Below are positions 1-6,000 of a stretch of 64,000 nucleotides of DNA, piece after piece (within the stretch, counting starts at the first letter, position 1; each line of letters opens with the position of its first letter). The position numbers are program-made. The DNA is from a virus (taxonomy: Duplodnaviria; Heunggongvirae; Uroviricota; Caudoviricetes). The stretch lies in IMG/VR virus record IMGVR_UViG_2877982868_000014, one strand, 5' to 3'.

Positions 1-3000
1 TCACTCACTCTCTTTTAAACCAGTTTTAACTGTTTGTGGTTTTGGGTAAGGCTGGACTTTGAATAGCTTTGTGTTGAGGCGTTTTCTGGCCCTCTTGTTC
101 AGAAACCGGATGTAACGAAACTGACGGAATTTATGAACACTGGCTCTGTCGATATTAGCCCTCAGATGTTCACCTCGCTGTCCGCCTCGTTTAATGGCAT
201 TCCTGCAAATCTCGTGATACCACTCGCCATCAAGTTCATAGAATGTTGATTCGTGGCTGCCTACATAATCAAAATTGCTTGCCTGATACACGACACCAAG
301 ACAGCCACAACGCTCATCTGCAAACGACTGAACCCACTGTACCTGCGGATAAAGCTGCCTGATTAGCTTGAGCGCGTAACTGATTGCCCTTGATTCGGAG
401 TTTCTCGGCATACAGTCATGCAGCCATAACCGGTTAAGCTCCATATATTCACGGTTCCGCGTGCCCGTTACGACGCGTGCACCACTGTTTGGATTAAGGG
501 CATAGCCCCATTGCATTACGCCAACCAGCTCCCGTTCTGAAAATATGCCCAGATGAAGGTAGGAGTTATTTACGAAACGGTGGCTGTAATGTTTATTGAC
601 GATGACCAGTCTGGCCAGCCAGCAACTTATTGTCTCAACCCGCAACTCACGGGAGCCATAACCAACGATATTGTCGTTATAGCGAATAAGTTCAGGCGTG
701 CTGATGATACGGGATGTGACTTGCTTTCTGTTCCCCACGACAGGATTTCCTTGTGTATGTGGGGTGCTCTGTGGCGCTCGGAGATGTGATTTGATTGAGG
801 GTTTTACAGCGCGGACATTTTACTTCCAGATAACTGAAACTGGCCCGTGCCAGTAGCTTATTGCAGTGTCGGCACCGTATGTTTCGATACATGGCCGCAT
901 AACCTCCTGCTTTGTTGTTGATGCCTTTCTCATGCAATCGATCGACAAAAACGATCGATTCGATTTGTTTAATTGATACAACAAATAGATTGAAAAGTCA
1001 TCAACAATGATTCAGGGCGGTGATTATTTACTTAAAGAAAACGAAGACTTAGGTGGTGAAAACGATCATAAAATGATCATTTTATTGACTTTTTATACAG
1101 TGAAGGTAGGATCGCGCGTATATGTAGTATGTTTCAAATCAACAGGATACTACATAAAGGGAGGTCCAGATAGTTACAGCTATCTGGACCTGGAACAAAT
1201 TCGCATCAATGCTTTACTTCGAGCTCGTGTCGTATCCTATGATATTCCCCGGTCTCCTGTAAAGCAGAGATGCATAAAAAGGAGATCTTTATCATGGATA
1301 AAGAGCCTGTTTGCCCTGCCTGTAAGACTCCCTTACAGCTCATCTATCGCCGTTCTCGATCTCAAAATGGCAAGACATACAAACCCCAAAATGCGTCCTG
1401 TTTCAGGATGCTGATATGTCCTGCCTGTTCTCCCCGGAGGGAAAGTACACAAAACGTGCATTAACAAATTCACCCGGCAGGGAAACCTGCCGGTCGGTAT
1501 TGTTACATCATAGTACCGTCAGTTCCGGGCTGAACCGGCTCTGGTTGCTCTACGGCTTGAGGCTCATTCTCCGTGCTGTTTTCAGCCGGAGAATGGCCAA
1601 CCATTCGGGCCAGCACTTCATCAACATATGCGTCGATTTGTGCCTCAAAATCCTTGCGAACCTGCGCCTTCAGCACGCGGTTCACTTCTTCAGAATAAAG
1701 TGCCTGTTTGACAAGCTCTTCAGTAACCGTGCCTTTAATCTCTGGCATGAATATTCTCCTTTTGCAGGTATATTGCCCCGTTATCAGAGCGGGGTCGGGT
1801 CGTTTGGGGATGACGGTGCCTGTGCTGTTTTACTGAGTTTTTCAGCTGCCGCATCATCAATTTTACGGCGAATATAATTTCTGATGACCTTATAACCGCC
1901 GCTCACCAGATATAACGCACTGACCACTGCGCAGAAATAAAGCAGCATTGTATGAACGAATGTCATATAACCTTACCTTTGATATTGACTACATAATTCG
2001 TTATCGGGTAAAAACATCGAAGCGACTGATAACCACTCCTTCGGGAGTATTTTTATTTTCCTTTATGGGTTAGGTAGCTCCCGCCAGCCATATCATGACC
2101 GGCGGGATTTTTTTATTCTGTTACCGCTTTTTTCACTTCCACCACAATGCTGTCAATCAGCACCGGGTAAGTTGCATTTTTTGTGATATCCGTTACGCGG
2201 AGTTTGTCCACCGGGAAAGTTCCTACTGGTGACTGCGTCAGGGTAAACGCGGCACCATCCTGACCATCAATAACCGGAATAACCTGAAGGCTGTTATTTC
2301 CTGCAAAACGGAAGGCCAGCGTATGCCATTCATTATCAAATGCACCAAAGGTTCCCAGTTTCTGGTTATTTGTTGCCACTTTTGCATTGTGGTACATCAC
2401 ATTCAGGTCTTTTGCGTCTGTCTGGATGTAGAACGATGCCAGCAGATTATTCCCTGCATCCCCTGTCAGGGTGACACCCTGCGGCAGAGAGGAAACCGGC
2501 CAGTAAAGCGCCATGACATACTGGTTTGCCACCAGGTCGCCCGGTACTTTAAAACGACAACTGATTAAACCACCATTTTTCAGCAGTTCAGCACCAGTAC
2601 CGGCATCATGATCCAGATACCAGGATGATTTACCTGTTTCCTTGGTCAGTTTCATTGCCTTACCACCTGTGCCTCCTGCATCACTGATAATTTCAGCTTT
2701 ACCGCCAGCCGGCTCCCAGCCCTGGGCTTTCAGATTTCCTTCTGACTCACTGACACGGTAAGACAGCAGTGTTGTGGTTACTGCTTCAGTTTCTGAAGGT
2801 GACGGCACTGGTGCTTCAGTTTCAGAAGATGGAACATCGGCTTTTACTGTGGTTCGCCCCGCATGAGTCAGAACTGCCGTGGCCAGACGGTCGGAAATAA
2901 TCCCACGACGTGCCCATGAACTGAAATGGCTGGCCCGGTCCGTAGATGTCCAGGTGGCGGCACTGTTACGCCACGTTGAGCCGTAATAACCAATGGATTC

Positions 3001-6000
3001 AATATCCGGGTCTTCTGCCGGATTGTTGGTGGGTACATTCGCGCCATTTTCATCTGTCATTAATGGGACGAAATGAATGTTTTTATCTGTTTTATTTTTG
3101 TAGCCGTCATAGATTGCCTGGTATGCCTGTTCGTTTTTCTGTTTCCAGAAATACGTGGTATCACCACAAATCCACGGAACGCCAGCAGCACTGCCACCGG
3201 TACACTGTTCCGCCTGTTCAGCCAGGTCTGCGCGGAATTTTTCCACCATCGCCAGAAACAGCGCAGAATGCTCCGTCGGCTTCGCATCAATATCAAACTC
3301 GCCCTGCATCCACACCACAGCAAGCAGGCGGTTTTTCGGGTTCTTCGCCAGTGCCGCTTTTGTCCGGCTGATTAAGTCCTTATACAGCGGCTTATCCACA
3401 CCCCAGCGGGCTGAGTCCTCTGAAGCACCCGTGCTGTCACTGTACGTGCCGTCAGCACCCGCCGTGAATGCAGAACCACCACGGCAGCAGGGAACCAGCA
3501 GAATCCCCGCATCTGCCGGAATAAACGGCAGCAGTTTTTTGGCAATGTGAAGCCCCTGACCCACGGTGCCATATTGCCCTTTAGCCACATCCGCTTTCGG
3601 GTGATTTTTTCCACTCATATCCTGCACATCATGCAGACAGTGGTCGGCCAGAATGATGTCGTTATACTGACAGGCTTTACCTCCCGGCGTGACTGTACTG
3701 CGACGGGCTAACTGCATAATACGCGGTTCGGGGCGGTCATATGTCTCCGGCAGTGGCAGACCTTCACCGTAAGCCATACCGTTTGACTGACCAGCAAGAA
3801 CCACCACGTAATACCAGGAAGGGGAGCTGGAAGCAGTTTCATTTCCTGACGGACGGGTATGTGTTTCAGCATTATCCCAGTCTGACGGTTCAGCAGTACC
3901 GGCAACATCAGCACTTAACGGAATGACCGCACCAATACCCGCTCCGGTAATTTCCACACTCGGATCACCGGATACTGGCCTTACCCACAGGCAATCCCGT
4001 GTATTAAAACTGATGAGACAGTCAGCAAATGTCATTCCTCCTTTTGTTTCGGCCGGAGGAAAGGGAGCCTCAAGAAATGCCGCTGTACCACCGGAAACTT
4101 TAACAGTAAAGTTTCCGGGCATTGATGATAGTTGAACCCATTTGGACGTCATAATAATCAGCCTGTTCCTGAATAAACTGAATTATCATATCCACAGACC
4201 GATAAACGCCATTTTGCGTTAATTCAGTAAAGGCCCAACAAAGAGAGCGTCTTATTTTTCCGAAACGCTCGCAGGATAATAACGATAAAGGGTTGAAAGA
4301 CCGATATCAAAAATAAGTGCCACCTGTCTTCGACTGACACCCCCGGCCAGTAAACGCCCGACCTGCTCGTATTGTTCCTGCGTGAGACGGCGGGGTCTGC
4401 CGCCGGTTCGTCCCCTTTCACGGGCAGCTGCAAGACCAGCCCGTGTCCGTTCGACAATTAATTCACGCTCCATTTCTGCCAGCGCACCCATTATGTGAAA
4501 AAAGAAGCGCCCCATGGGGGTTGACGTATCAATGTTGTCAGTAAAACTACGAAAATTTATCCCCTGTTGCTGTAATTCATCTGTCAGCGCAACAAGGTGG
4601 CGCATACTGCGCCCCAGCCTGTCCAGTTTCCAGACCATCAGCGTGTCACCGGGTTTTAGTTTCTTCAGTGCCCGCTTCAGTCCCGGCCGCTGTGTCGTTT
4701 TACCACTCATTTTGTCTTCAAAAATCTGCTCACATCCTGCACATTCCAGCGCATTTCTTTGTAAACCTGTGTTCTGGTCATTTGTTGATACGCGTATATA
4801 GCCAATCAGCATGTATTTACCTTCCTTAAAAAGAGGTGGAAAGGCCTTTTAAAGCAGATATACGGCATCCCTGAAACCTCGGTTTACGGGATACGGTAAA
4901 CAGGGCCGCGAATGCCCTGCCATCAAACGGTACGGCTGTTGCAGCAAGCAGGCTGGCAAATGCCCGCAGAATCAATGGTGTCGCCTTTGACGGCACGCAG
5001 GATATAAACATTACGTCAGGAATGCCGGAATCAACGGCCAATCAGCGTTATGTTACAGGGGTAAGACTGGGAGCGCAGGCATTAAGCGGCGGACTGGAAT
5101 ATAATTACTCCCTGTCATCAGGAAATGTGATTACCGGTTTTAAGACTAACGGAGACTGGGAAATGCGTGGTGGTGATGACCGTGTTTATTACAGACAGAT
5201 ACAATATTGTATTAATGGGCATTGGGTATCCGCTGCAAGTATTTAATTAACGGGGGCATAGCACACAGCAGCCAGCATCTGAAATATGCGTTATTTCAGA
5301 CAAGCATTGCCTGTATATGGCGATAGTATTATTCCTGTTTTTATCATTGATTTACATGGTGATGTTTATGCAACTGATTAATGTCAAACGATATTACCCG
5401 AAAGACAAACCCTATGGTGAGGATGTTCAGTATTTCCAGAGTGAGGACGGAAGGGATTTTTATGAATCTATCCCGCTTTTCACAAAGAAATACAAACTCT
5501 GTATTTCGCCTGTAACGGGTATTATCTGCTCTGTTGCTGAAGATGTCTCTGCTTTATATCCGGCAGGTTTTACTGTTGTTGAAGTGGACGAACTGCCGGA
5601 AGGTGTGAATATTGACGGTAACTGGCAGTTTTCTGATGGCCTGATATCAAAGGTGCCGGTAAACTGGAAGACGGTTGCTGAAAAGCGTCGCTCATCGCTG
5701 CTCCAGGAAGCCAACGAAACCGTGGATGACTGGAAAACAGAATTAAAACTGGACATGATTAGCGATGAAAATAAATTACAGCTGACGCGCTGGATGGCGT
5801 ATATCCGACAGCTTAAAGAAATGCACTTTAATGATATTGCCAGTGAGGGGCATTACCAGGCGATTCCCTGGCCGGAAAAACCGGAATAATTCAGAGGGTG
5901 CATTCAGCACCCTTTTCTGTGGTTTACACTGAACTTACCGATCTCCAGGCATTATTAATATAAATCTGAACCGGGCGATAATAGACCCCACCGATATTGT

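Follow-up and report, generated by a model that had tools for sequence, protein, structure and literature searches.

A NanS-p-type esterase gene between gin and com-mom of Sp18-type Mu-like prophages and its exchanged N-terminal domain

NanS-p esterases are thought to help Escherichia coli strains that produce Shiga toxin (STEC) feed on mucin sialic acids. Is a gene of this type that resides in a Mu-like phage the same as its counterpart in Shiga toxin (Stx) phages, and what might its product do there? This question is raised by a DNA stretch of 64,000 nucleotides (IMGVR_UViG_2877982868_000014), which we refer to as the window and in whose coordinates positions are given unless a contig is named. 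Here, an open reading frame (ORF; 2113..4152, minus strand) for an esterase of 679 amino acids is situated between gin and com-mom of a Mu-like prophage of E. coli O157:H7. Its product is probably an enzymatically active member of the NanS/NanS-p family of sialate O-acetylesterases and would be made late and released by lysis. A different N-terminal domain (estN) replaces the DUF1737 domain of NanS-p.

Identity and position of the esterase gene

When the protein sequence was searched against Pfam, residues 116-312 matched SASA (E 5.5e-12) and residues 524-642 matched DUF6645 (E 4e-70). Residues 104-428 aligned with E. coli NanS (PDB 3PT5, E 5e-118) and residues 459-674 with the C-terminal lectin-like domain of NanS-p (PDB 6YP6, E 3e-112). 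These matches define a NanS-type SGNH/SASA catalytic domain (residues 113-435; 2848..3816) and a lectin-like jelly-roll domain (residues 459-679; 2113..2778 including the stop codon). At NCBI, many copies are named either 'sialate O-acetylesterase' or 'DUF6645 domain-containing protein'. A single-sequence AlphaFold2 model of the full-length esterase was unusable, with a mean predicted local distance difference test score (pLDDT) of 33.

The esterase contains the motifs GQSNG (residues 121-125) and WMQGEFD (residues 281-287). Catalysis by NanS relies on a Ser19-His301 pair and an oxyanion hole that includes Gln18, and a catalytic Asp is lacking (PMC9063846). Aligned with 3PT5, the window protein has S123 (codon 3784-3786), H409 (codon 2926-2928) and Q122 at these positions, and all three are invariant in every variant examined, including four core variants that share only 51-68% mutual identity. 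The initial annotation had named Ser, His and Asp as the catalytic residues whose loss would matter: Ser and His are both kept, and the Asp is not applicable to this family since NanS has none. A full-length ORF was present in 33 of 39 retrieved loci, three loci were disrupted by a frameshift or premature stop, and three were cut by a contig end or by a draft assembly. For the catalytic domain, the ratio of nonsynonymous to synonymous substitution rates (dN/dS) was 0.10-0.12. The intact ORFs and the purifying selection rule out that the gene is a pseudogene or mere passenger and, together with the kept catalytic residues, they indicate a functional esterase gene under selection.

Comparison with phage records indicated where else such genes reside. 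Residues 102-673 share 78% identity with NanS-p of Stx phage 1717, and 299 of the 301 matching phage records were lambdoid Stx phages, with a nucleotide identity of 78-81% that was confined to 2124-3807. The view that NanS-p-type esterases are cargo of lambdoid (Stx-type) phages is borne out by these data.

On the minus strand the gene order is gin, esterase, DUF1378, DUF826, com, mom. The upstream flank is a gin-type DNA invertase gene (4252..4812; 186 amino acids; Pfam Resolvase, E 5.8e-51, and HTH_7), whose product is 75% identical to Mu Gin in tblastn and whose nucleotide homology to Mu covers 4811-4423. Downstream of the esterase lie the DUF1378 gene (1784..1966; 60 amino acids with one N-terminal hydrophobic helix; Pfam E 1.2e-38) and the DUF826 gene (1503..1748; 81 amino acids; Pfam E 2e-15), and the downstream flank (1..937) holds com (692-892; Pfam Zn_ribbon_Com, E 3e-12) and mom (1-738; Pfam Mom, E 4.5e-77), all on the minus strand. 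The order from the esterase to mom is kept in every locus with sufficient sequence as well as in prophage Sp18 of strain Sakai, and in every complete locus, as in Stx phage 1717, the next gene after the esterase is DUF1378. Both small genes accompany the esterase in either phage type, and lambdoid Stx phages carry an equivalent three-gene module between stx and the lysis genes. The three genes form a module that is fixed at the right end of Mu-like phages of the Sp18 lineage. Chance cannot produce these domain matches together with this cassette layout, and the observation is confirmed: the ORF, the enzyme family, both motifs, the position between gin and com-mom and the presence of two small downstream genes, which are DUF1378 and DUF826, all stand as initially annotated.

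Strain Z1813 of E. coli O157:H7 matches the first 5 kb of the window at 100% identity, and in this strain the Mu-like prophage interrupts puuB. In Sakai Sp18 the corresponding genes are ECs_4992 (invertase), ECs_4993 (esterase), ECs_4994, ECs_4995, ECs_4996 (opposite strand), ECs_4997 (com) and ECs_4998 (mom), and ECs_4993, a 'hypothetical protein' of 679 amino acids, is identical to the window protein at 674 of 679 residues (99%). Among 5426 complete E. coli genomes, 232 contain an Sp18-type mom/com region and 204 the estN segment with the gin junction; the gap between these counts includes a class of 61% identity that is beyond the reach of megablast. Wherever a sampled contig encoded a Mom at least 97% identical to that of the window and extended far enough upstream, the esterase, DUF1378 and DUF826 genes were present. 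In about 50 contigs with a Mom of at most 83% identity (Mu type), no esterase was found in the gin-mom slot. Between gin and mom there are 279 bp in 17 contigs of Mu type, compared with 3.4-3.8 kb in those of Sp18 type. Thus, Mu-like prophages of other genomes do carry the cassette, as Sakai Sp18 and the 204 genomes with the estN-gin junction demonstrate, and what had been regarded as an unusual context is instead the fixed layout of the Sp18 lineage, which the Sakai genome has displayed since 2001 (ECs_4992-4998). In this way, about 4% of complete E. coli genomes, mostly those of STEC strains, possess one extra nanS-p-type copy.

Sequence and gene order are therefore already public since 2001. 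What appears to be new is the swap of the N-terminal NanS-p domain in Mu-like phages. In the searchable literature we found no mention of a nanS-p-type gene in a Mu-like phage, of ECs4993 or of an N-terminal swap, although an earlier mention in subscription journals is possible.

The N-terminal domain estN and exchange of the esterase core

For residues 1-114 of the window esterase no Pfam domain was detected, DUF1737 included, even when E-values up to 1 were allowed. NanS-p of phage 1717 carries DUF1737 at residues 3-50 (E 1e-15), and BLASTP between the two proteins yielded no similarity ahead of residue 102. We call residues 1-80 (3913..4152, minus strand), which are specific to Mu-like phages, estN. 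They are followed by a linker (residues 81-112; 3817..3912), which is predicted to be disordered and runs into the motif ASSSPSW (residues 107-113). A model built from four sequences was all-beta from about residue 1 to 78 (pLDDT about 60) and disordered through the linker to residue 112 (pLDDT below 50). When this model was searched with Foldseek against BFVD, no fold match was obtained (best E 0.03), and a single weak PHROGs match of estN (phrog_4772, E 0.0065) was not relied on. Taken together, these comparisons show DUF1737 of NanS-p to be replaced by a domain of about 80 residues that is predicted to be all-beta. The initial description as a NanS-p-like three-domain esterase thus holds for the catalytic and the lectin parts, but the swap of the N-terminal domain means that the esterase falls short of a full NanS-p.

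The relatives of estN are E. coli and Shigella proteins of two classes (97-100% and about 61% identity) and one Salmonella protein (29% identity). A phmmer search of 1.84 billion representatives returned five matches (fragments from E. coli or Shigella, a single Salmonella protein, and a repeat protein taken to be a compositional artefact), and a scan of species-representative genomes found no further relatives. Each of the 34 IMG/VR loci with an estN coding segment is the right end of a Mu-like phage, and the same is true for the Salmonella contig and for two complete genomes that belong to the 61% class. In these loci, baseplate and tail-fibre genes are followed by gin (present or deleted) and then by the esterase. 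Thus, estN tracks the phage type: outside Mu-like prophages of E. coli, Shigella and Salmonella it was not found. A comparison of the two E. coli classes gave a dN of 0.25 with saturated synonymous sites (0.76), and close variants have a dN/dS of 0.10; estN is under purifying selection. Many NCBI records start the esterase at Met11 (4122; 669 amino acids) rather than at Met1 (4152; 679 amino acids). We favor the longer form because the residues ahead of Met11, including W5, are conserved in the relatives of 61% and 29% identity. In the Salmonella Mu-like prophage (L041, 9426-9910), whose contig stops inside the esterase gene, two small ORFs (58 and 87 amino acids) lie between gin and the esterase, and the larger one has a weak helix-turn-helix match.

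The remainder of the protein behaves differently from estN. At loci L015-L018, estN and linker are 96-98% identical to the window, and divergence begins right after PSWYYV; beyond this breakpoint the identity amounts to 67% for the catalytic domain, 38-45% for the lectin domain and 57-59% for DUF1378. The window core itself is 78-81% identical to cores that are attached to DUF1737, whereas its identity is 67-68% to the core of the second Mu-like class from E. coli and 53-56% to the L015 and L016 types. Since it is nearer to DUF1737-attached cores than to other estN-attached ones, cores attached to estN do not form one clade. This pattern fits repeated exchange of the core with lambdoid nanS-p genes while estN stays on the Mu-like backbone, with the caveat that estN lies outside the homologous stretch, so that recombination alone would leave it in place. 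The phage collection contained no near match that could serve as lambdoid donor of the L015-type core, and in E. coli genomes this core occurs within Mu-like prophages or rearranged remnants thereof.

The sequence common to both gene types permits recombination with the lambdoid nanS-p paralogues, and one chimeric gene was seen. This gene (L118, 608-2539; product P0075) encodes DUF1737 and about 210 first residues of lambdoid type; the remainder equals the window protein except for four residues, which carry the Sakai Sp18 allele, and DUF1378, DUF826, com and mom come after it. P0075 was rejected as a close DUF1737-bearing relative because its gene joins a 5' part of lambdoid origin to a 3' part of Sp18 type. 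It reflects either recombination between a lambdoid nanS-p and the Mu-like copy or an artefact of the draft assembly. In strain 2014C-3011 (L117, 5007-6575 and 10441-10917) the esterase gene is split: the 5' part adjoins gin, the 3' part adjoins a truncated integrase gene and an IS66 element, and this points to a chromosomal rearrangement through the esterase gene.

A possible role of estN is suggested by phage phi24B. Its NanS-p, gp84, is a virion protein, the DUF1737 hexamer of which sits on the capsid hexons and the enzyme part of which is later cleaved off, possibly at linker motifs that contain SSP (bioRxiv 10.64898/2026.04.10.717836). It is exactly this docking domain that is replaced in the window protein. 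By analogy, estN might be an adaptor that fixes the esterase to the capsid or tail of a Mu-type virion, so that the enzyme would decorate the particle and aid in binding or crossing sialylated mucus. Such a role would be in line with the confinement of all three estN versions (100%, 61% and 29% identity) to Mu-like prophages, with the purifying selection on estN and with its constancy while catalytic and lectin parts are exchanged at a breakpoint at the end of the linker. The end of the linker, ASSSPSW, resembles the SSP motifs proposed as gp84 cleavage sites, but this motif and a second one (PVPSPSE, about residues 449-455) are short, and the cleavage function of SSP in gp84 is itself a proposal. 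Moreover, canonical Mu assembles its virions without such a protein, the estN model is of low confidence and resembles no known fold, and retention of estN is explicable without selection for docking, because recombination cannot replace a segment that lies outside the nanS-p homology. We consider the adaptor role a reasonable hypothesis, though less likely than not to be correct. Equally tentative is the broader idea that NanS-p-type esterases are modular display proteins, in which exchangeable N-terminal adaptors (DUF1737 in lambdoid phages, estN in Mu-like phages) might dock the same cassette. The Mu-like version is a natural swap experiment in this respect, since catalytic and lectin parts are the same and the front domain follows the phage type. 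If estN were a virion adaptor, the N-terminal domain would decide which virion displays the enzyme; the surface of Sp18-type virions, unlike that of Mu virions, would bear a sialate O-acetylesterase, and this would be a case of a transposable phage carrying a mucus-active enzyme.

Expression, release and likely function

Between the gin stop and the esterase start there is a 99-bp spacer (4153..4251, minus strand), in which our scan found no sigma-70 consensus promoter. In the entire region, five sigma-70 promoter-like sites were counted versus 5.6 expected by chance. The spacer contains a 16-nucleotide box, CTGAATTAACGCAAAA (4227-4212), which is followed after 21 nucleotides by TATGAT (4190-4185). 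Close copies of this box are located upstream of the I homologue (20252-20237), which encodes a protease/scaffold protein, and upstream of the lys homologue (28179-28164), where according to the annotation the box overlaps the end of the C activator gene (28176-28601); both are followed 22 nucleotides later by TATGCT or TACGCT. These two copies have zero mismatches to the derived pattern, and CTGAWWTNNCGCAAAR with a spacing of 21-22 nucleotides to TAnnnT occurs at three sites of the window (esterase, lys, I), compared with a mean of 0.11 in shuffled sequence. Thus, of the 100-bp promoter region initially ascribed to the esterase, the sigma-70 promoter was not found, but a box in common with the lys and I upstream regions was. 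Margolin, Rao and Howe reportedly described in 1989 the C-dependent late promoters P_I and P_lys of Mu, and we take the boxes upstream of the I and lys homologues to be at the positions of these promoters.

In the 61% class, TTGAATTTCCGCAAAA followed after 21 nucleotides by TATTCT is retained, also in prophages in which only the last codons of gin are left. Retention of spacer and box in such loci indicates that the esterase is independent of gin transcription. At two loci of this second lineage (L005, 9318-9621; L024, 3291-3553) gin is lost except for about 15 final codons and the esterase spacer is retained; the invertible tail-fibre segment of gin-less prophages is presumably frozen in one orientation. 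An AACGC-N6-GCGTT dyad resembling a Mu C-protein site was dropped as a shared motif, since it is present at the esterase only and absent at other late genes. Late, C-dependent expression of the esterase has in our view about an even chance of being correct.

The likeness of the spacer to the upstream regions of the late genes lys and I makes it most likely that the esterase is produced late in lytic growth, as is nanS-p in Stx phages, where expression increases upon prophage induction (PMC10462455). Inspection of the protein sequence revealed no hydrophobic signal at the N-terminus, and without a signal peptide the enzyme would leave the cell only through phage lysis. We infer sialic acid substrates from the activity of NanS-p enzymes on 5-N-acetyl-9-O-acetylneuraminic acid (Neu5,9Ac2) and mucin glycans (PMC8065619). 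In the reading that we prefer, the SGNH catalytic domain would act via the Ser123-His409 pair and be followed by a carbohydrate-binding, lectin-like domain, and the released enzyme, whether free or virion-bound, would O-deacetylate Neu5,9Ac2 as well as the sialoglycans of mucin.

Several points weigh against this proposal. In the source genome, seven places match the 5-kb region, most of them nanS-p paralogues, and the contribution of the Mu-like copy may therefore be redundant. Sp18 is predicted to be intact but is not induced by mitomycin C (PMC2669165), so that the amount of released enzyme may be small. The three sites on which the promoter pattern was scored are also those that it was fitted to, which makes the pattern supportive but not proof; its predicted -10 element at the I site lies about 8 nucleotides from the annotated start codon, and the Salmonella relative has no clear copy of the box.

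Alternatively, the esterase might be a lysogenic conversion factor, expressed from the resting prophage and acting inside the cell like NanS, so that the lysogen grows on Neu5,9Ac2. Chromosomal NanS corresponds roughly to the bare catalytic domain, with the 3PT5 chain starting opposite residue 104, and reviews credit prophage NanS-p with the growth of STEC on Neu5,9Ac2 (PMC8065619). Such use is at odds with the lack of a detectable sigma-70 promoter upstream and with a box in common with late genes, and the lectin-like and additional N-terminal domains have no obvious intracellular use. We regard this scenario as unlikely.

Still less probable is action on glycans of the bacterial surface (O-acetylated O-antigen, capsule or colanic acid) by a tail-associated, receptor-modifying enzyme resembling SGNH esterase tailspikes, an idea raised for NanS-p in a review (PMC8065619) and compatible with the gene's place directly downstream of the tail-fibre, assembly and invertible host-range module and with a weak PHROG 'tail protein' match (residues 210-311, E 4e-5), since the catalytic domain is 78% identical to that of Stx-phage NanS-p, a family active on Neu5,9Ac2/mucin (PMC8065619), no trimeric fibre or beta-helix region is detectable in the protein, and gin and the spacer separate the esterase from the tail-fibre operon.

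Neighboring sequence and comparison with known systems

In addition to the genes initially annotated, the slot between gin and com contains a frameshifted ORF of low GC content (about 39-41%) on the opposite strand (1007..1464, plus strand; PGAP call), which lies between DUF826 and com and has an intact homologue in Sakai ECs_4996 (154 amino acids). It gave no informative Pfam match, and its sole match was phrog_26524, a family of unknown function. In strains M3 and S1-CAM-01-A, an unrelated ORF of 86 amino acids occupies this place, which is thus a variable cargo slot that differs between lineages. A defence role for the small neighboring ORFs was rejected, as PADLOC returned zero matches.

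Immediately 3' of the esterase stop, ViennaRNA predicts a strong hairpin of 13 bp (2079..2107), with -24.5 kcal/mol for the minus-strand segment and -18.9 kcal/mol for the plus-strand segment. Since a T run is present only on the plus strand, the hairpin would stop antisense transcripts through DUF826/DUF1378 before they enter the esterase gene, and such transcripts could start, for instance, from the ORF at 1007-1464. Upstream of com (936-985), we observed a palindrome, AATCGATCGACAAAAACGATCGATT (936-960), about 50 nucleotides from the com start. This region carries two GATC sites (953-956 and 940-943) versus three in Mu. The late-gene box of esterase, lys and I is absent from it, so that regulation of mom may differ from that in Mu.

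Beyond gin, an invertible tail-fibre segment (4826-6368) includes a tail-fibre assembly gene (5317-5889), with mirrored C-terminal tail-fibre pieces at 4875-5243 and 5927-6889 and a gix site (4874-4900) that is 93% identical to Mu gix. The major head protein, a homologue of ECs_4974, is encoded at 18131-19078. The stretch from about 39000 to 64000 is located beyond the left end of the Mu-like prophage and holds no additional nanS-p copy. Two long ORFs in it (51202-54726, 1174 amino acids; 57269-59923, 884 amino acids) resemble lambdoid host-specificity and tape-measure proteins by size alone, which would mean a second prophage.

When the locus is compared with known systems, Sakai Sp18 is the same phage lineage with the same gene order; it is inserted in sorM and not in puuB, and its ECs_4996 is intact, whereas the counterpart in the window is frameshifted. 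At the right end of Mu, gin, gix, com and mom are present in the same order and orientation as in the window. However, only 94 bp separate the gin stop from the com start in Mu, which lacks the cassette as initially annotated, whereas about 3.36 kb with four genes do so in the window. Nucleotide homology to Mu is limited to gin, mom and gix, so that the insertion junctions cannot be placed to the base. With the NanS-p proteins of Stx/lambdoid phages (933W z1466/L0105; phi24B gp84, vb_24B_21) the window esterase has in common the catalytic and lectin domains, the lack of a signal peptide and probably late expression, and as in Stx phage 1717 the DUF1378 and DUF826 genes adjoin it downstream. 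It differs from them in that DUF1737 is absent and an unrelated, predicted all-beta domain of about 80 residues stands in its place, that the carrier is a transposable Mu-like myovirus, and that the gene is located between gin and com-mom and not, as lambdoid nanS-p, between Q/stx and the lysis gene S. Chromosomal NanS (YjhS, 3PT5) belongs to the same SGNH type II fold family and has the same Ser-His pair and oxyanion-hole Gln. In contrast to the window protein, it consists of the catalytic domain alone, without N-terminal and lectin-like domains, and it is part of the nan regulon and not of a phage.

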